Of a stretch of 64,000 nt of DNA, positions 2,141 through 56,346 are shown one piece after another. Location of the stretch: the NCBI GenBank assembly GCA_045649345.1, contig JAZRPS010000018.1, forward strand, positions 75,499 to 139,498, given 5' to 3'. Position 1 is the first letter of the stretch, and every line of letters begins with the position of its first letter. The translations under genes and the position numbers were made by a program. The DNA is from Candidatus Enterousia sp. (GTDB taxonomy: Bacteria > Pseudomonadota > Alphaproteobacteria > Rs-D84). The notes below the pieces were generated by a model. The model was not told the DNA's origin. It searched no databases and saw only the letters and a list, made by a program, of their open reading frames with translations.

Positions 2141-3922
2141 CTATTTCATTTTATGCTTTATATCTGCAACGATTGCGTCTACATCAAAACCCATCCGCGC
2201 ATAGACCGCATCACCTGAACCAGACATACCAAATCTATCAATTCCAACAACCGCATCGGCAAATTCAAACCATGGTGCAGATGCCGCCGCCTCTATCGCA
2301 ACGACAAAACCACGCAACATCTGTTGTTTATATTGTAAATCTTGCATACGAAAATCTGCAACAGATGGCACAGACACCACCTGAACCGCATCGCCCAGTT
2401 TTTCTGCAACAGCGATTGCCAACGGAACCTCACTCCCCGTTGCTAGCAATGTCACAGACACACGCGACTTTGACGCAGACCGCACCACATATGCACCGCG
2501 CGACAAATCAGCACCCAACGGCGTTGCAACCAAACCAATCAATTGGCGCGACAGAACAATACATGATGGGCGTGTTTTTTCTGTTAACGCACGTCGCCAT
2601 GCATACATAACCTCTACCCCATTACATGGACGAAAAACATTTAAGTTCGGCATTAATCGCAACGACGGCAATTGTTCAATTGGCTGATGCGTTGGTCCAT
2701 CTTCGCCGACTGCAACACTATCATGCGTCAACACATAAACAACCGGCAATCCGGACAAGGCTGCAAGACGAATACTGGGTCGCAAATAATCACTGAACAC
2801 CAAGAATGTAGAACCAAAAACACGCAACCCAGACAACGCCATGCCATTCATAATCGCACCCATTGCATGTTCGCGAACGCCATAGTTTATATAATTACCG
2901 GCAAAATCATCTGACGTTATATCACGCGTTGCACTACTTTTTACATTCGTACTGCCACCTAAATCCGCACTGCCACCAACGACACGAAGCCCAACCTTAA
3001 AAAGTTCTTCTAAACAAAGCCCCGACAATTCACGTGTCGACATCGCCCCACCAACCACAGGCATAACAATATTTGGAATCGAAACATCTGGTTTACGCCC
3101 CACTGTTTCAACACGTTCTGTCGCCAAATTTCCCCACAACGCATCACCCGTTGGCGACAAATAACGCTGAACCAAATCCATCAATTCTGCATCCGACAAC
3201 GAAAAACCATGTGCCTTGTGCGAACCGGCACGACTGGAACCACGACCAATTTCCGTTTTACATTGAATAAAGACAGGACGATCTGATTTTTGCGCTGCAT
3301 TCAACGCACGATTAATCTGCACAAAATTGCCACCATTTACCGTAATTACACGCCACCCTGCCGCCACCATACGCGCAGGCACATCAACATCCGTCAATGC
3401 CACACCATCAATACTGACCCCATTATCATCCCACAATAAAATCAGATTATTTAACTTATACCGACCTGCAAACGCGATTGACTCTTGGGCGACACCTTCC
3501 ATTAAATCGCCATCAGAACACAAACAATACACACGCGAATCGGTCTTGTTTATTTTTTCCGCCATTGCCATACCAACAGCATTTCCAACACCCTGCCCCA
3601 GTGGCCCTGTTGTTGCATCAACACCTGGGATTCCATATTCAGGATGCCCAGGCAAGCCATCAATTTTACGATAACCATTTAAATCGCCGATATTATACCC
3701 GACCAATTTTAACACAGAATATAACAGCGCACTGCCATGCCCGGCAGACATAACGAATCGGTCACGACCGCGACGAATAAAATTCGCAAACAGCGTTGTC
3801 ACAACATCCGTCGCCCCCAAGACAATGCCAACATGCCCACTGCGCGCAACACGCACTGCATGCAACGCCCATGCACGAACCGCATTTGCCATTTCTTTTA
3901 AATCTTTGGAATTATATGTCAT
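2141..3922 (-). CDS. tkt: Transketolase
   Basis: Strong TPP-binding and transketolase motifs (GHxGxxLG, DGDLMEG). The start was trimmed to MTYNSKDL at 3922 because the ORF-track N-terminal extension is non-homologous. Confidence 0.9.
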   Translation of the reverse strand: MTYNSKDLKEMANAVRAWALHAVRVARSGHVGIVLGATDVVTTLFANFIRRGRDRFVMSAGHGSALLYSVLKLVGYNIGDLNGYRKIDGLPGHPEYGIPGVDATTGPLGQGVGNAVGMAMAEKINKTDSRVYCLCSDGDLMEGVAQESIAFAGRYKLNNLILLWDDNGVSIDGVALTDVDVPARMVAAGWRVITVNGGNFVQINRALNAAQKSDRPVFIQCKTEIGRGSSRAGSHKAHGFSLSDAELMDLVQRYLSPTGDALWGNLATERVETVGRKPDVSIPNIVMPVVGGAMSTRELSGLCLEELFKVGLRVVGGSADLGGSTNVKSSATRDITSDDFAGNYINYGVREHAMGAIMNGMALSGLRVFGSTFLVFSDYLRPSIRLAALSGLPVVYVLTHDSVAVGEDGPTHQPIEQLPSLRLMPNLNVFRPCNGVEVMYAWRRALTEKTRPSCIVLSRQLIGLVATPLGADLSRGAYVVRSASKSRVSVTLLATGSEVPLAIAVAEKLGDAVQVVSVPSVADFRMQDLQYKQQMLRGFVVAIEAAASAPWFEFADAVVGIDRFGMSGSGDAVYARMGFDVDAIVADIKHKMK

Positions 3923-11668: not shown

Positions 11669-11807
11669 CCAAAAACTTGGCACGCCCTACAGGATTGTAA
11701 ATTCCCATCTTCGCTTTCGCTCAATGGGCCCCTTTCGCCTACGGCTCGAACCTGTGACGGCTCTCATCCTTTGTCCGCGCCAAAAACTTGGCACGCCCTA
11801 CAGGATT
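11669..11807. repeat. Tandem partial duplicate of the tRNA-Arg 3' region: two 28-bp direct repeats (11669-11696 and 11780-11807) flank an 83-bp insert whose first 50 bp (11697-11746) is a conserved core also found at tRNA-Ser
   Basis: ccaaaaacttggcacgccctacaggatt occurs twice. On the tRNA strand the insert reads ...gtcACAGGTTCGA[50-bp core]AATCCTGTAGGGCGTGCCA. This is a tRNA-Arg T-arm/acceptor copy split inside the T-loop. Confidence 0.85.
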
Positions 11808-20841: not shown

Positions 20842-22062
20842 TTATTTTCTTGTCACCAAAAATTCGGAAACCTTTTTCAATGCCCAAACCAATAAAACCG
20901 TCATGCACAAGAAAACAACCAAGGTCGCCGTTATACCAAACCCATCTAACAAAACCTTTGCCAACATTAATGTCATTGCCCCACAAACTGTCGACACCAT
21001 TGCACGCGTAGACAACACAGTTCCACGCTCTTGCGATTTTATACTATGATGAATCAATGTATTATATTGCAAATTATTCAGCACACGTACCGCCGGCAGC
21101 ATCGCCAGCACAGCACACACAACATAAACCAATGCCATGCTCGGCGCATAAATCGCAACCAATCCCATAAATATACTTAAAACAATAGCACCAATTGTTA
21201 TAATCGAAACCTTAATTTCGCCATATCTTTCACAAATTTTATACGCATATTTCGACAAAACAATTTCAGAAAATTGTTTCATACCTAAATACAATCCAAA
21301 CAGTTGAACCGGGACCATTGCTGTTTCCATTATCGGCTGCGAAATCCATAACAACACAATTGTAAACGCACCAAACATTGCCGGAAATAAAATCAAATTT
21401 CGCAATCTGGGATTTTGCAACGTATGCCATGTAATCCCCAATGCATCTGCAATCGCTGTTTTGTTTTTCACAACACGTTTTACCTCTAATAATTCTGGTA
21501 AAAAACAAAACGCAAATACCGACATTAATGCAAACAATATCTGAACCCAAAGCAAGCAATCACCACCAAAACGTGCAAACAAACCGCCACCGAAAATCGC
21601 AGCAACGAATGATGCTGCACTGCCAAACGTCATAATATTTCCAAACTCTTTCAAGAACTGTTTTTGCGTTTTATTGCGCTTTAACAAATCGTACGTATAC
21701 GCTTCTAATGTACCTGTAAACAGTGCGGACGTAACACCTAACAAAGCCTCTCCTAAAACAATAGCCCAAAAACCGTACGCCATCGCAATTACAGAAAATC
21801 CCGCCACACAAAACGCGCCACCCATAATCATCACACGACGACGACTAAATCTATCCGACAAATACCCTGATGGAATTTCAAACAAAAAAGCAACCAATCT
21901 AAAAATTCCCTGAATCAGAAAAAAATCACCAACACTGATACCACGTTGCGTATAAACCAAAACAATCACCGGCAACACCAACATAAAATTGTGAAAGAAC
22001 CACCCTGCCCGCAACAAATACAGCCCACGTTTAACGGATTTAATTGATTGATTTTTTGCCAT
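20842..22062 (-). CDS. MFS transporter
   Basis: 406 aa with ~12 predicted TM helices. Confidence 0.7.
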   Translation of the reverse strand: MAKNQSIKSVKRGLYLLRAGWFFHNFMLVLPVIVLVYTQRGISVGDFFLIQGIFRLVAFLFEIPSGYLSDRFSRRRVMIMGGAFCVAGFSVIAMAYGFWAIVLGEALLGVTSALFTGTLEAYTYDLLKRNKTQKQFLKEFGNIMTFGSAASFVAAIFGGGLFARFGGDCLLWVQILFALMSVFAFCFLPELLEVKRVVKNKTAIADALGITWHTLQNPRLRNLILFPAMFGAFTIVLLWISQPIMETAMVPVQLFGLYLGMKQFSEIVLSKYAYKICERYGEIKVSIITIGAIVLSIFMGLVAIYAPSMALVYVVCAVLAMLPAVRVLNNLQYNTLIHHSIKSQERGTVLSTRAMVSTVCGAMTLMLAKVLLDGFGITATLVVFLCMTVLLVWALKKVSEFLVTRK

Positions 22063-22122
22063 ATTAGCATGATAACATATTCAGGAATTAAATTCTAATC
22101 AAAATTAGCTATTTCGCCCCTT

Positions 22123-22360
22123 TTATCCAACCACCGCAACATAAAAATAAAATGCCCAAAACGGGCATTTAATTTTTATAGCGGATGGTGAGGGATTGTA
22201 AATTCCCATCTTCGCTTTCGCTCTATGGGCCCCTTTCGCCTACGGCTTCGAACCCCACGCAACTTCGTTGCTCATCCGGGTGTTCTTATCCAACCACCGC
22301 AACATAAAAATAAAATGCCCAAAACGGGCATTTAATTTTTATGGCGGATGGTGAGGGATT
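22123..22360. repeat. Tandem partial duplicate of the tRNA-Ser 3' region: two 75-bp direct repeats (22123-22197 and 22286-22360, 1 mismatch) flank an 88-bp insert that starts with the same 50-bp core (22198-22247) seen at tRNA-Arg
   Basis: Each repeat contains the tRNA 3' 19 nt plus 56 bp of flank, including the gcccaaaacgggc terminator hairpin. On the tRNA strand the insert reads ...gcgtGGGGTTCGAA[core]AATCCCTCACCATCCGCTA. Confidence 0.85.
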
Positions 22361-22431
22361 CGAACCCCCGGTGGAGTTGCCCCCACAACGGTTTTCAAGA
22401 GCGTCGCATTCGACCGCTCTGCCAACCATCC
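22342..22431 (-). tRNA. Class II tRNA with long variable arm, most likely tRNA-Ser (anticodon TGA)
   Basis: GGATGGT...CTCTTGAAAACCG...GGGGGTTCGAATCCCTCACCATCCGCCA has a 7-bp acceptor stem, a T-loop and a long variable stem. The cloverleaf could not be fully folded by eye. Confidence 0.7.
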
Positions 22432-22568
22432 GAAACTATACACGCCGGCGGTTCTTTCAAACCGACGGTTTTGGTGTTTCACATGACATTGTCATGCTCA
22501 CACTCCACTTCGCTGGCGCTTCGTAGTCAAGACCGCTCATCTCAACACGCTCTGCCAACCATCCGAAA
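22415..22568. repeat. 21-bp direct repeat of the tRNA-Ser 5' end (22415-22435 within the gene; 22548-22568 as an upstream fragment) separated by 112 bp
   Basis: cgctctgccaaccatccgaaa appears twice, covering tRNA positions 1-17 plus 4 nt of flank. The spacer contains a catgacaatgtcatg palindrome and a GATGAGCGGTC motif resembling the tails of the 3' inserts. Confidence 0.8.
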
Positions 22569-22577
22569 GTATATTCA

Positions 22578-22877
22578 CTAATTTGTCAGACAGCACCAAC
22601 GGCGCACATTATACATTATTTTTTTTAAAATTGCAAACATAAAATCATATATCCAATAACAAATCCCTAAATCAACAATGACACAACCAGGACGTTGCAT
22701 GGTATCATATAGTTGAAAACCAAAGTCATTTTTCTGATAGTAATTATCAATCGCCAGCATTCTTACCAAGATATCTGCACGATTTATATTTTGTTTCATA
22801 GAGTGAGAAAAGAGCCATTCGGTATCAAGTATCGTTTCGTCAATCAGCTTGTATTTTGGATATGGTATAAGATTCAT
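22578..22877 (-). CDS. Hypothetical ORF in an AT-rich spacer (possibly a gene fragment)
   Basis: 99 aa with no recognised motif in unusually AT-rich DNA; its C-terminal part looks low-complexity. Confidence 0.2.
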   Translation of the reverse strand: MNLIPYPKYKLIDETILDTEWLFSHSMKQNINRADILVRMLAIDNYYQKNDFGFQLYDTMQRPGCVIVDLGICYWIYDFMFAILKKIMYNVRRWCCLTN

Positions 22878-22997
22878 ATTACAGAGAGGTTTCTTTTTAG
22901 CCTATCGTATTATATCGTCTTGTCAAATAATATATTGTAATTAGATTGACTTTTAACATGCTTGGTATAAAATAATGAAAGATCAAAGGGTTCTTTT

Positions 22998-24281
22998 ATG
23001 ACTAAATATGTTGCTGGGATTGATTTTGGGACAACTAATTCTGCTGCTGCGATTTCTGATGGGGCTACACCACGTATGGTGGATGTAGAAGGCGGCAAAG
23101 ACACAATTCCAACCGCATTATTTTTTGCAGATAAAACCAATAGTGTGCATTATGGTCGTGACGCACAGAATAAATATACAAATGGCGATGGTTCTGGGCG
23201 TTTTATGCGCAGCATGAAGCGTATTTTGGGATCACAAACAATGCGTGGTGGGACGGTCGTAAATGGAAAAATGACCCGCTTTGATACAATTATTGAATAT
23301 TTTGTAAAACACCTGAAACAGAAAATTGATAAGGCAGCAGGCACCAAGGTTGAATATGTTGTTATGGGGCGACCAGTACATTTTCGTGATAACGATCCTG
23401 CTGGTGATGCCCAAGCCCAGGCGGAATTGGAAAAAATCGCACTTGCAGCCGGTTTTAAACATGTCGCATTTCAGTATGAGCCAATTGCAGCAGCCTTTGC
23501 ACACGAACAGAATTTAACATCGGAAAAGCTTGCTTTTGTTGTTGATATTGGCGGTGGGACATCTGACTTTACAGTTATCAGATTATCGCCAGAACGCAAG
23601 TTCAAGTTGGATAGAACCGAAGATGTATTGGCTAATACGGGTGTTCGTATTGGCGGAAATGATTTTGACAAGGCGCTATCAATGAAATCATTTATGCCAT
23701 GTTTTGGATTGGGGACAGAGTATAAATCGTATGATAAAAACATCACAATCCCAACCAGTCCGTATATCAGTCTTTCCACATGGTCATCTGTGAACGAAGT
23801 GTATAACTATAAAACACTGAATATGGTGCGTGGCTATACTGTTTGGGGGCTGGAACCAGAAAAAACAAAACGTCTATATGAAATAATAGAAAATCGTCTG
23901 GGGCATAAAAACTTAGATTATGTTGAAAATGCTAAAATGGCACTATCTTCACAGCAGGACTATGAAATAGTTTTAGACTTTTTAGCAGATGCTCCATTGG
24001 TCAAAACTAATCGTTCTATTTTTGAAGACTCTATCAAGTCTGATATAGCCAAAATTGAAAAGTCTGTTCAAGAGTGCATCGCCCAGGCAGGCATAAAAAA
24101 TACAGATATAGAATTAGTCATTTTAACGGGTGGTTCGACCGAAATTCCATATGTCAGTCGTGTTATGCAATCTTATTTCCCAAATGCAGAATTGTCATCA
24201 GCAAATAAAATGGCAAGTGTGGGCCTTGGCTTGGCATACGATGCAATGCGTCGATTTGCCGAACCACAACATACGAAATAA
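22998..24281 (+). CDS. Hsp70-family protein, YegD-like (actin-like ATPase, NBD only)
   Basis: MTKYVAGIDFGTTNSAAA...ELEKIALAAGFKHVAFQYEPIAAAFAHEQ...VVDIGGGTSDFTVIRLS...RIGGNDFDKALSMK aligns along the whole length with E. coli YegD. Confidence 0.8.
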   Translation: MTKYVAGIDFGTTNSAAAISDGATPRMVDVEGGKDTIPTALFFADKTNSVHYGRDAQNKYTNGDGSGRFMRSMKRILGSQTMRGGTVVNGKMTRFDTIIEYFVKHLKQKIDKAAGTKVEYVVMGRPVHFRDNDPAGDAQAQAELEKIALAAGFKHVAFQYEPIAAAFAHEQNLTSEKLAFVVDIGGGTSDFTVIRLSPERKFKLDRTEDVLANTGVRIGGNDFDKALSMKSFMPCFGLGTEYKSYDKNITIPTSPYISLSTWSSVNEVYNYKTLNMVRGYTVWGLEPEKTKRLYEIIENRLGHKNLDYVENAKMALSSQQDYEIVLDFLADAPLVKTNRSIFEDSIKSDIAKIEKSVQECIAQAGIKNTDIELVILTGGSTEIPYVSRVMQSYFPNAELSSANKMASVGLGLAYDAMRRFAEPQHTK

Positions 24282-24507
24282 AAATTCCCTGTAAAACTGG
24301 ATTTTATATGTGAAGTATCATGTTACGTTCATACCCTGCCAACAAAGTGGCAGTGCGAAAAAGCCTATTGGATGTAAATGGCGCTTTTTTTATGCATTTT
24401 TGCATCCGCAAAAACACATCCGTTTACACACATCAAAAAACATCACCCGCACCCCCGCAGAACTCTGGGATATAAAAAATAGACGTGTGCCGAACACACG
24501 TCTATTA

Positions 24508-24723
24508 TTATCTCTGGTCGGGGCGACAATGAGTAAATTTGCCAAGTATCAAACGCAGGCAAATTGTCACGAATGCCACGCAGATTTATCACATTTTGTG
24601 ATAAAGCGAGTGAAACGTTCGAACCCGACAAAAGGATTTTGTCGTTTGAATCCACAGTTCCACCAAAATAAACAAAAATACCGCATTAACTGCGGTATTT
24701 TTGTTTATCTCTGGTCGGGGCGA
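24508..24723. repeat. 19-bp direct repeat of the tRNA-Pro 3' end plus flank (24508-24526 and 24705-24723) flanking a 178-bp insert
   Basis: ttatctctggtcggggcga occurs twice. On the tRNA strand the insert carries a T-arm-like GTCGGGTTCGAAC, then ~95 nt ending ...caaatttactcattg, then TCGCCCCGACCA. It also contains the bidirectional hairpin taccgcattaactgcggta. Confidence 0.8.
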
Positions 24724-24788
24724 AAGGATTCGAACCTTCGACATCTTGGTCCCAAACCAAGCACTCTACCAGACTGAGCTACACCCCG
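24712..24788 (-). tRNA. tRNA-Pro (anticodon TGG)
   Basis: CGGGGTGTAGCTCAGTCTGGTAGAGTGCTTGGTTTGGGACCAAGATGTCGAAGGTTCGAATCCTTTCGCCCCGACCA folds as a clean cloverleaf. Confidence 0.9.
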
Positions 24789-24885
24789 AAACGAGAGGTA
24801 TTATAACAGCATTTTTTTCAAATGCAAATTTTTATTTACATTTTATGCTTGTTTGATTTCATTAAGTTTTATATCATACAAATGA

Positions 24886-25881
24886 ATGAGAAGGATATTT
24901 CAATATTTTATAATATTTTCTGTTGTCGCCACTGGTGCATATGCCATGACACGCGATGCGCAACTGACCAACACAACTGGTTATAATTACAACTATATGT
25001 ATCCATATATGAACAATCAGATGCGTACCGACCTAAATCCCGGTGTCACGACATCACAATCATTAAGCCCGATAAACACCGTCGTGAAAACAACAAAATT
25101 ATCCGCAGACAGACGCGTTGTGCCACGCAAGACAAGCACCGCACGCAGTGCATCCAACACAAACATGGCACCACGAATTAATACCAGCACGCAATCCGAT
25201 ACGCGTCGCGTCGTTGCACGTAGTGCGTCCAGTACAAATGCACGTCGTATGACCAATCCTGCGAATCGCCGTGTCGTTGCACGTGCCGGCATTAATCAAC
25301 CGGGCAACATGCGTACTGGGACACGTGCAGAAACCACAAATACATACCGTAATGCAACCAACACGAACAATACATACACAACAACCCAGCGCACGTCATC
25401 AACCCGTTGTTTGGCAGACTATATGGAATGCATGGACAGGTATTGTGAACGCGAAAACACTGCATACAATCGATGTTATTGCAGTTCAAAACTGTCGCAA
25501 ATCGATTCGACATACCAATCTGAAATCGACAGTCTTATTAAACAGATTATTGCGCTACAAGGCATAAACAAATGGACCGACACAGAAATGAACGAATACT
25601 GGATGGACACAATCGGTAAATATTCGGGCGATAATTCTTGGACGAATATTGATGACGCATTGAACATCGATTGGGCAGGCATGGAAAGCCGTGTTCGCGG
25701 TCAAAACGCATTTACAACTGGTCATGAATATTGTGTTCAGCATTTGCGTGGCTGTTATTACATGGCATCAAACCTGCGTGACGCATATCGATCTGAAATC
25801 GCACGTGACTGCAACACTTACGAACAAGCCCTGCAAAAATTGAAAAATGCCGCCGAAAGTATCATAGGTGCATACAAATGA
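24886..25881 (+). CDS. Secreted protein with an Arg/Thr/Asn-rich repetitive N-half (RRVV(A/P)R repeats) and a Cys-containing C-terminal domain
   Basis: Sec signal MRRIFQYFIIFSVVATGAYA, repeats RRVVPR/RRVVAR x4, then C-terminal CLADYMECMDRYCERENTAYNRCYC. Confidence 0.55.
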   Translation: MRRIFQYFIIFSVVATGAYAMTRDAQLTNTTGYNYNYMYPYMNNQMRTDLNPGVTTSQSLSPINTVVKTTKLSADRRVVPRKTSTARSASNTNMAPRINTSTQSDTRRVVARSASSTNARRMTNPANRRVVARAGINQPGNMRTGTRAETTNTYRNATNTNNTYTTTQRTSSTRCLADYMECMDRYCERENTAYNRCYCSSKLSQIDSTYQSEIDSLIKQIIALQGINKWTDTEMNEYWMDTIGKYSGDNSWTNIDDALNIDWAGMESRVRGQNAFTTGHEYCVQHLRGCYYMASNLRDAYRSEIARDCNTYEQALQKLKNAAESIIGAYK

Positions 25882-53369: not shown

Positions 53370-53443
53370 TTGGTTGGGGCAGCTGGATTCGAACCAACAC
53401 TGACGGAGTCAGAGTCCGGAGTTCTACCATTAAACTATGCCCC
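53370..53443 (-). tRNA. tRNA-Gln (anticodon CTG)
   Basis: TGGGGCATAGTTTAATGGTAGAACTCCGGACTCTGACTCCGTCAGTGTTGGTTCGAATCCAGCTGCCCCAACCA has the Gln-characteristic U1:A72 pair. Confidence 0.85.
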
Positions 53444-53444
53444 A
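53407..53444. repeat. 38-bp direct repeat, copy 1 (tRNA-Gln positions 1-38 plus 1 nt flank); its partner lies at 56175-56212
   Basis: gtcagagtccggagttctaccattaaactatgccccaa is identical at both sites. Confidence 0.9.
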
Positions 53445-53500
53445 AGCACCGCGGATTATAAGCCTTTTTTATTTTTAATGCAAGTAGAAAGTTTTTTCTA

Positions 53501-53518
53501 TGTAAAAAATATGTAAAA
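53501..53518. repeat. 18-bp motif TGTAAAAAATATGTAAAA, copy 1 (copy 2 at 56023-56040)
   Basis: Exact repeat at both borders of the tRNA-Gln islet in the same orientation, each upstream of a plus-strand gene. Confidence 0.8.
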
Positions 53519-56022: not shown

Positions 56023-56040
56023 TGTAAAAAATATGTAAAA
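56023..56040. repeat. 18-bp motif TGTAAAAAATATGTAAAA, copy 2
   Basis: Identical to 53501-53518. Confidence 0.8.
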
Positions 56041-56174: not shown

Positions 56175-56212
56175 GTCAGAGTCCGGAGTTCTACCATTAA
56201 ACTATGCCCCAA
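56175..56212. repeat. 38-bp direct repeat, copy 2: a 5'-half fragment of tRNA-Gln (pseudo-tRNA fragment)
   Basis: Identical to 53407-53444; 2.73 kb separates the two copies. Confidence 0.9.
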
Positions 56213-56346
56213 TGCCCGCCTATTATATGCATCACGAATACATTTTGCAAGCAGAAAATTTAACACTTTTTACCCCCCCACACACAAAAACAATATTGAC
56301 AAATTTTATTATTGTGCTATACTCTGCCCATAAAAAGGCGCACAAT

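Follow-up and report, generated by a model that had tools for sequence, protein, structure and literature searches.

How does a bacterial tRNA gene come to carry a second copy of its own 5' end little more than a hundred nucleotides upstream? The question is raised by the tRNA-Ser(UGA) gene of a Candidatus Enterousia genome (assembly GCA_045649345.1, contig JAZRPS010000018.1, positions 75,499 to 139,498), which lies on the minus strand of the 64,000-nt stretch analysed here (the window). All coordinates are positions in this window, and tRNA-Ser nucleotides (nt) follow linear numbering; L-numbers (L001-L058) denote fetched comparison loci or contigs of Enterousia-type, other, or viral origin. 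The locus probably preserves the scar of a site-specific, gene-restoring insertion in the anticodon loop of tRNA-Ser(UGA). Such a scar, a displaced 5' half of a tRNA gene (tDNA) that is now without a recombinase, is of a known but uncommon kind.

The window contains five tRNA genes, every one on the minus strand (ARAGORN; Rfam). The original prediction, that the 5' end of tRNA-Ser is repeated 112 bp upstream, is borne out: the 21-mer CGCTCTGCCAACCATCCGAAA is present exactly twice (22415-22435 and 22548-22568; 21/21 nt, 112 nt between them), with 0 second matches expected by chance (100 shuffles). The repeat grows to 26 nt with one mismatch (25/26; 22415-22440 against 22548-22573, 107 nt between them) and comprises a 9-nt leader followed by tRNA-Ser nt 1-17. 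On the tRNA strand, a promoter is followed by the outer copy (22573-22548), a 107-nt spacer, and the inner copy, which runs into the full gene; no gene lies between the two copies. The spacer was also considered as a second, divergent tRNA gene, a possibility that the same prediction had dismissed by folding. The dismissal holds, as no cloverleaf was detectable with ARAGORN or the Rfam tRNA model at E-values up to 10, and a single tRNA was called in 22050-22650 even at this threshold. Rfam returned no matches at the locus other than tRNAs. In the direction of transcription, the features are as follows.

22608-22636, minus strand: native sigma-70-type promoter, TTGCAA-17 nt-TATAAT (promoter scan, 10/12 match; aligns with the promoter of L007 and L009)
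22527-22573, minus strand: putative displaced native 5' half of tRNA-Ser, 47 nt (repeat, MAFFT alignment, global alignment)
22565-22573, minus strand: leader of the outer copy, 9 nt
22548-22564, minus strand: tRNA nt 1-17 of the outer copy
22537-22547, minus strand: scrambled D-arm of the outer copy, TGTTGAGATGA, 11 nt (native counterpart GTCGAATGCG)
22527-22536, minus strand: anticodon stem and loop of the outer copy, GCGGTCTTGA (10/10 to the native gene)
22441-22526, minus strand: non-tRNA insert, 86 bp, the putative remnant or body of an element
22505-22526, minus strand: hairpin M, CTAC-GAA-GC-GCCA-GC-GAA-GTGG
22474-22503, minus strand: second GA/GAA-bulged hairpin, holding the palindrome at 22482-22496
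22445-22468, minus strand: hairpin CCGTCGGTTTGAAAGAACCGCCGG
22395-22440, minus strand: putative incoming leader (22432-22440) and 5' half (nt 1-37), containing the inner repeat copy 22415-22440
22342-22431, minus strand: working tRNA-Ser(UGA), regenerated and probably chimeric (ARAGORN; Rfam 47.8 bits)

The homology of the outer copy reaches further than the repeat. Past the scrambled D-arm, GCGGTCTTGA is identical to the 5' strand of the native anticodon stem plus the loop in L007, L009, and L038 (MAFFT), and the homology ends just past the last anticodon base at 22527 (linear nt 37, canonical position 36). In a global alignment, 21 nt of the outer copy scored 9 against native nt 18-37, compared with -5.8 +/- 3.0 for a null set of 20000 21-mers drawn at random from the window (P about 1e-4). 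On this alignment, the outer copy is best read as a 47-nt displaced native 5' half that comprises the leader and nt 1-37 and is degenerate past nt 17, and the non-tRNA insert therefore as 86 nt. The fragment end would thus fall in the anticodon loop, a canonical crossover site, while an alternative boundary at nt 17/18 is possible. Scars of this type can evidently be mis-sized, since the repeat alone would suggest 26 nt (25/26) for what is probably a fragment of 47 nt.

Comparison with other species indicates which of the two copies is the older resident. In L007 and L009, a homologous promoter directly abuts the orthologous tRNA-Ser(UGA) gene, and the 133-nt block consisting of the spacer and the inner repeat is missing from both. 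It is for this reason that the outer copy, rather than the inner one, is taken to be native. The insert is likewise absent from these two loci; at strain level, the state of the site is readable in L038 only from nt 8 on, the position at which this contig begins. The promoter at 22608-22636 sits upstream of the displaced 5' half and is the sole promoter-like site on the minus strand able to drive tRNA-Ser.

The working gene bears a trace of its own. The window and L038, a contig from a strain with 98.7% identity over 525 nt, differ within the 90 nt of this tRNA only at nt 28 (A in the window instead of G, 22404) and nt 31 (C instead of G, 22401), both in the 5' strand of the anticodon stem beside the junction, where a C31 x C41 mismatch is created. 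Native G occupies both positions in the outer copy as well as in L007, L009, and L038. This two-base pattern suggests that the working tRNA-Ser is a chimera, and such a mismatch would be expected had the donor of the inner 5' half been compensated on the opposite strand of its stem. Read in this way, the A28/C31 changes place the putative crossover between nt 31 and nt 37. The related viral contigs L052, L055, and L058 combine A28 with native G31, and C31 was found in no viral contig.

A phage precedent for such a half-gene emerged from a scan of viral contigs for the D-arm and anticodon-stem sequence of tRNA-Ser, which returned nine contigs. Phage contig L050 encodes a tyrosine integrase (2295-3470; PF00589, 1.9e-22, plus an arm-binding domain), and about 95 nt past this gene, behind a promoter-like TTGAAA-16-TAGAAT, a tRNA-Ser(UGA) 5' half (3568-3604) terminates at CTTGA, the same base as the outer copy in the window. 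Beyond it lies unrelated phage DNA, including a capsid gene, and no intact tRNA was called. We read this arrangement as a phage attachment site that carries a tRNA-Ser 5' half. In L056 (10082-10300), a prophage-end contig, an integrase-linked tRNA-Ser(UGA) stands behind two tandem 5' halves, in both of which the D-arm GAATGC has been swapped for a 17-nt hairpin, GCCCCGAAGTGTCGGGA, in parallel with the scrambled D-arm of the window.

Two further 5' duplications with the tRNA-Ser layout, both in this lineage, reach the anticodon loop of other tRNAs. At tRNA-Met(CAT) of L022 (1620-1830), a perfect 40-nt 5' repeat extends to the anticodon loop around a 165-nt insert, and the promoter lies upstream of the outer copy, a layout matching that at tRNA-Ser. 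The L022 insert holds TGTTGAGTATGA, which resembles TGTTGAGATGAG of the window. At tRNA-Gln of the window itself, the 5' half and leader are repeated (53408-53463 and 56175-56230; 56 nt, 89% identity) up to the anticodon loop. The 2.7-kb insert at this gene provides its own promoter before the working copy and contains three open reading frames (ORFs) without a Pfam match; an 18-mer, TTTTACATATTTTTTACA, occurs near both of its ends (53501-53518 and 56023-56040).

Displaced 5' fragments are familiar from genomic islands, albeit as a minority. In Islander, a 5' tDNA fragment is recorded for 159 islands and a 3' fragment for 3760 (159/3919), with 2083 anticodon-centred sites (PMC4383910). As in such islands and prophages, described by the sublocation scheme of Williams (2002), tRNA-Ser is regenerated and accompanied by a direct-repeat fragment of the same gene; as in the 5'-fragment islands in particular, the fragment ends in the anticodon loop and the replaced half would have been supplied by incoming DNA. 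Unlike in these islands, only 86 bp separate the copies, with neither integrase nor cargo, the incoming part lacks a usable promoter, and the displaced fragment has a scrambled D-arm. Cis-mobilizable elements (CIMEs), i.e., elements that retain attL and attR after the loss of their genes (PMC5704250), offer a second comparison. At tRNA-Ser too, attachment-type repeats flank a segment that contains no recombinase and no integration or transfer genes, and another element has accreted in tandem at the same tRNA; the CIMEs described so far, however, are kilobases long and situated at 3' ends. The scans returned no related larger or autonomous element.

On the explanation favoured here, incoming DNA would have carried its own leader and 5' half (nt 1-37) of tRNA-Ser. 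A recombinase encoded elsewhere, most likely a tyrosine integrase, would have acted in the anticodon loop and joined this incoming half to the native 3' part of the gene, while the native 5' half, its promoter still attached, would have been pushed upstream as a dead fragment. The element may then have shrunk to 86 bp with both attachment sites kept, or it may always have been a miniature moved by a recombinase encoded elsewhere. Transcription would begin at the native promoter and pass first the dead half and then the insert, in which no terminator was detected on the tRNA strand, and cleavage by RNase P at G1 (22431) would free the normal 5' end from a leader of ~170 nt. Excision is predicted to leave an empty site reading ...TATACTTTCGGATGGTTGGCAGAGCGGTCGAATGCGGCGGTCTTGAAAACCG... 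and a circle junction in which ...GGCGTGTATAGTTTCGGATGG...CTCTTGA is joined to CTACGAAGCG....

Several observations weigh against this explanation. The outer copy decays unevenly (25/26, then ~6 changes in 11 nt, then 10/10), which simple decay would not predict, and an internal GCGGTC repeat in native tRNA-Ser lets GAGCGGTCTTGA be read as a copy of the D loop. The leaders of the two copies are identical at 8/9 positions, so that the donor must have been closely related unless both copies stem from one local source. Together with AGAGCG in the D-arm, C31 makes up a full inverted repeat of 6 bp and could have arisen as a local templated mutation. No donor tRNA-Ser carrying A28/C31 was found in the metagenome scan, nor were a phage carrying an Enterousia-type tRNA-Ser 5' half or a donor lineage for the incoming half encountered. 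The insert had no copy in the viral scan, the metagenome scan, or the phage database beyond its tRNA part. No recombinase lies between the copies and none of the 19 ORFs of the window analysed with Pfam matched PF00589; a crude hidden Markov model (HMM) search of the window and 49 Enterousia loci was also negative. Finally, no independent assembly spans the junctions, the contigs L038, L044, and L049 stopping before them.

The 86-bp insert deserves separate consideration. It folds better than its shuffles (z -2.8; z -4.0 with flanks), and its two adjacent hairpins (22505-22526 and 22474-22503) each have an inner stem bordered by GA(A) and GAA. At least two GA/GAA hairpins occurred in 0/20000 shuffles and 0/~19850 random real windows, and a single one in 0.5%; the motif was defined after the first examples had been seen, so that only the second hairpin constitutes an independent test. 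The palindrome CATGACAATGTCATG, which had been predicted in the upstream spacer, was confirmed at 22482-22496 and is unique in the window and among 99 fetched loci. Searches with blastn against 37, and later 49, loci found no further copy of the insert, only its tRNA part being matched, and no source for this filler was found within the window. No promoter was detected in it on the tRNA strand, and no terminator was called on either strand. The insert has no significant inverted copy of the 5' part of the tRNA, the only resemblance, at 22497-22506, being to the complement of the acceptor strand on the 3' side (8/10 positions). A transposon or miniature inverted-repeat transposable element (MITE) was rejected on the grounds that the repeat, at 26-47 nt, exceeds the short target duplication of fixed length (2-14 bp) typical of such elements and that the two ends of the insert, CTACGAAG... 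and ...GGCGTG, form no terminal inverted repeat. Readings of GATGAG...CGAAA as a hammerhead, a K-turn, or another ribozyme were discarded by eye because invariant core bases are unmet.

On the 3' side of the same gene lies an insertion of another type.

22198-22285, minus strand: separate T-loop insert of a family termed E, 88 bp
22286-22360, minus strand: 75-nt direct repeat flanking this insert, copy in use
22123-22197, minus strand: the same repeat, displaced copy

The only mismatch in the 75-nt repeat is CTA in the displaced copy against CCA in the working one (22180). This 3' insert is shared with L038, and over 55 nt its core shows 98% identity, with one mismatch, to an insert at tRNA-Arg (11697-11779). 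A genome-collection scan with the core as query returned 31 loci, all belonging to metagenome-assembled genomes that bear the label Candidatus Enterousia or uncultured Alphaproteobacteria and come from animal and human guts, and a core profile (nhmmer) recovered 35 copies, 33 in these loci and 2 in the window. Members of the family are protein-less inserts of 83-165 bp in tRNA T loops with an essentially invariant 45-nt core, AAAGGGGCCCATAGAGCGAAAGCGAATATGGGAAT. They adjoin ten tRNA species (Met, Lys, Gly, Leu, Ser, Gln, Arg-TCT, Arg-CCT, Tyr, and Pro) and, in the collection scanned, are confined to Candidatus Enterousia or related gut alphaproteobacterial genomes; none were found in viral contigs.

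Each E copy brings a matching tRNA 3' end and its own terminator. In the plan common to the copies, the intact tRNA is followed by the terminator that the element brings along and by the tRNA 3' end in an imperfect inverted copy. Next come GG(A/C)(T/C)GAG and two hairpins, the first with a 3' strand that copies TTCGA and the T-stem of the target and the second a small one, and then the invariant core, (T)TACA, and the displaced native 3' end from the T loop onward. The inverted left part is well illustrated by L010 1722-1921, L012 5300-5570, and window 11669-11807. GGAT-GAG-AACC in the 3' inserts corresponds to an altered reverse complement of the T-loop sequence GGTTCGAATCC, of which the unaltered form GGATTCGAACC is kept in L024. 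Minimum free energy folds of many single copies give a four-way junction with an acceptor-like stem and three hairpins, and the three hairpins reappear in the consensus of the alignment. Counts of wobble pairs point to the tRNA-sense strand (41 G.T vs 18 A.C); the invariant core offers no covariation. The core contains GCGAAAGC, known as an extraordinarily stable DNA mini-hairpin (PMC13037366).

These data bear on how the two sides of tRNA-Ser are related. Repeated recombination at this tRNA, as originally proposed, is supported by what appear to be two independent tRNA-restoring insertions, one in the T loop (3') and one best placed in the anticodon loop (5'). The suggested composite element using both halves finds no support: nhmmer detected no match to the E core AAAGGGGCCCATNGAGCGAAAGCG...GGGAAT in the 5' insert region 22441-22547, and the 3' duplication represents a T-loop event of its own, brought about by a different element. 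The GATGAG motif is indeed present in the 5' spacer, and GATGAGCGGTC is located at 22531-22541 as had been noted; its proposed resemblance to the tails of the 3' inserts is most simply coincidental because the origins differ, the motif stemming from the T-loop complement in the 3' inserts and from a D-arm/anticodon junction in the 5' insert, where GATGA of the scrambled D-arm is joined to GCGGTC of the native anticodon stem. Against coincidence, the 8-mer GAGATGAG is common to the 5' insert and some 3' inserts (the tRNA-Gln and tRNA-Tyr copies), and both inserts are composed of hairpins with GA/GAA bulges.

The likeness between the two inserts goes beyond these motifs. Both are small, protein-less, and tRNA-restoring, and in both a GATGAG-type motif precedes a copy of the target, with the same module polarity relative to the tRNA strand. 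In contrast, E inserts have an invariant core, carry their own terminator, repeat the tRNA 3' end in inverted form, and always replace the 3' part from the T loop, whereas the 5' insert has none of these and is known from a single copy. The first hairpin of the 5' insert matches a motif termed M, CTACGAAGC-N-GCGAAGTRG. A looser pattern of M has 9 matches in 387 kb against 0.25 expected, of which 7/9 lie beside a displaced tRNA fragment and 2 look coding. Elsewhere, M appears as a 31-35-nt hairpin insert (CTAC-GAA-stem-loop-stem-GAA-GTAG) between the discriminator and CCA, or just past CCA, of displaced 3' fragments. The 41 matches in viral contigs are uninformative, being close to the chance estimate (assuming ~6e10 bases) and never near a tRNA. 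The M sites are the following.

L015 1982-2002
L015 282-302
L016 435-455
L022 2089-2109
L013 3622-3638
L017 7981-7997
window 22505-22526, minus strand, at the junction of the 5' insert

It is conceivable, though we consider it unlikely, that the 5' insert, the E inserts, and the M hairpins form a single guild of mini-elements that is specific to the lineage, its members being without proteins and composed of GA/GAA-bulged hairpins, among them GCGAAAGC. In Candidatus Enterousia genomes of under 1 Mb, they would overwrite either end of tRNA genes that probably exist in one copy each, and they would be moved by a recombinase encoded elsewhere, possibly via folded single strands. If this were true, tRNA-Ser would be a triple chimera written by two such elements, and GATGAG plus the target copy would be a shared functional module.

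The alternative explanations differ mainly in where, and whether, a crossover took place. A crossover at nt 17/18 in the D loop would make the insert a whole miniature element belonging to one guild with the T-loop inserts on the 3' side and opening with GAGATGAG and a short target copy, GAGCGGTC (tRNA nt 13-20), before the two GA/GAA-bulged hairpins. The D loop GGTCGAAT does resemble the T loop GGTTCGAAT and might have served as a pseudo-site; GAGATGAG recurs unchanged as a motif of the tRNA-Gln and tRNA-Tyr copies of E, GAGCGGTC agrees with the D loop at 8/8 positions, and the GATGAG motif precedes the target copy in the E family as well. The insert also has two GA/GAA hairpins that resemble the E core and motif M, far more than chance would give, and protein-less inserts of 83-165 bp are the norm at tRNAs of this clade. 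However, the insert lacks the E core and stands alone, no second copy having turned up in any search, and the local alignment on which this boundary relies is weak (z about 2.2, vs P about 1e-4 for the alignment extending to the anticodon). Moreover, TTGA and the A28/C31 changes are left unexplained, and the target copy abuts the crossover sequence in E, whereas the best match here is the anticodon stem. Overall, we judge a D-loop crossover to be possible but rather unlikely. A related proposal, an E-like element inverted at the D loop, was rejected, as the outer copy reaches the anticodon and no terminator was called in the insert.

Dispensing with mobile elements altogether, a local rearrangement that is not site-specific (slippage, template switching, or break repair) might have duplicated the 5' end and captured filler DNA. 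This would accommodate the 8/9 identical leaders, the quasi-palindrome completed by C31, and the lack of a nearby recombinase noted above; the outer copy is also derivable by a 13-nt tandem duplication and a deletion between the internal GCGGTC repeats, and the neighbourhood is heavily rearranged relative to strains that are 97-99% identical in flanking proteins. On the other hand, it would have to produce a boundary exactly at the end of the anticodon, the canonical crossover position, which recurs in phage L050 and in the two other 5' duplications, and a filler of 86 bp without a source in the window whose hairpins are of the type seen beside other displaced tRNA fragments. We therefore regard it as improbable. 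Retention of the spacer as RNA, either as a structured 5' leader or as a small RNA cut from the tRNA-Ser precursor with the duplication being secondary, would be in line with the folding of the insert and with its co-transcription with the tRNA, required by a promoter that exists only upstream. Yet there is no Rfam match, no homologue in any collection scanned and hence no conservation or covariation shown, and the orthologous genes function without the insert, which makes such a role very unlikely. Least credible of all is an assembly or binning artefact of the metagenome-assembled genome: although the junctions are spanned by no independent assembly and three related contigs break inside or beside the tRNA region, a unique 86-bp sequence separates two non-identical copies, the 26-bp repeat is far below assembly k-mer length, and the outer copy is adjoined by a promoter with homology to the native one.

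If the insertion in the anticodon loop is accepted as the probable origin, the working tRNA-Ser(UGA) is probably derived from three sources, its 5' half having come in from outside, its middle being native, and its 3' end having been supplied by another element. It carries an anticodon-stem mismatch and would be expressed via a leader of ~170 nt. Published Candidatus Enterousia genomes are mostly under 1 Mb (PMC12306168); should tRNA-Ser(UGA) be single-copy, as is likely in a genome of this size, this would amount to a real functional constraint. Displaced 5' tRNA fragments reliably mark past integration, and the mark is readable here even though the element is almost gone. The finding itself is ordinary, an uncommon subtype of a known scar; more unusual is its setting, in which tiny inserts that encode no protein, restore tRNA genes, and share an invariant core occur across the clade.

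Some E copies depart from the simple plan. Tandem arrays occur in L012 (5372-5570), L006 (4888-5110), L004 (5107-5350), and L010 (434-1767); in the last of these, two copies 1.29 kb apart bracket a methyltransferase-like ORF (664-1626) in a gene-cassette-like manner. In L023 (5805-5900), the core forms a plain 50-nt insertion in the T loop of a tRNA-Arg 3' fragment without an upstream duplicate, which probably resulted from a deletion between two GGTTCGA repeats. L012, L013, and L023 contain tRNA-Arg 3' fragments whose 5' part has been replaced by unrelated sequence. E copies in L009 (4780-4860) and L013 (3600-3660) stand between the 3' end of one tRNA on the left and a different tRNA-like 3' fragment on the right; these mixed flanks suggest recombination between E copies at different tRNA genes. 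In the window, the tRNA-Pro 3' end (TCGCCCCGACCAGAGATA) is duplicated (24509-24526 and 24706-24723) around a 179-bp insert that includes a degenerate T-arm copy and ends with AATTTAC like E inserts.

The region surrounding tRNA-Ser has been rearranged around its tRNAs. Relatives with 97-99% identical flanking proteins have quite different neighbours: the Hsp70-like gene has other neighbours and no tRNA-Ser, and the gene of the major facilitator superfamily (MFS) is accompanied by GrpE instead or lies on a contig that ends inside or before the tRNA. Exact look-ups of window proteins gave no match. The neighbours of the Hsp70-like gene (22998-24281) differ in every one of these relatives, the homology extending from 22946 to just past the stop codon, and the rearranged stretches that flank it comprise 22574-22945 and 24296-24900. 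Within the former, a 99-aa ORF (22578-22877) has a C-terminus, FMFAILKK, that resembles that of the gene preceding tRNA-Ser in L007 and L009, and is probably a fusion remnant at a rearrangement breakpoint.

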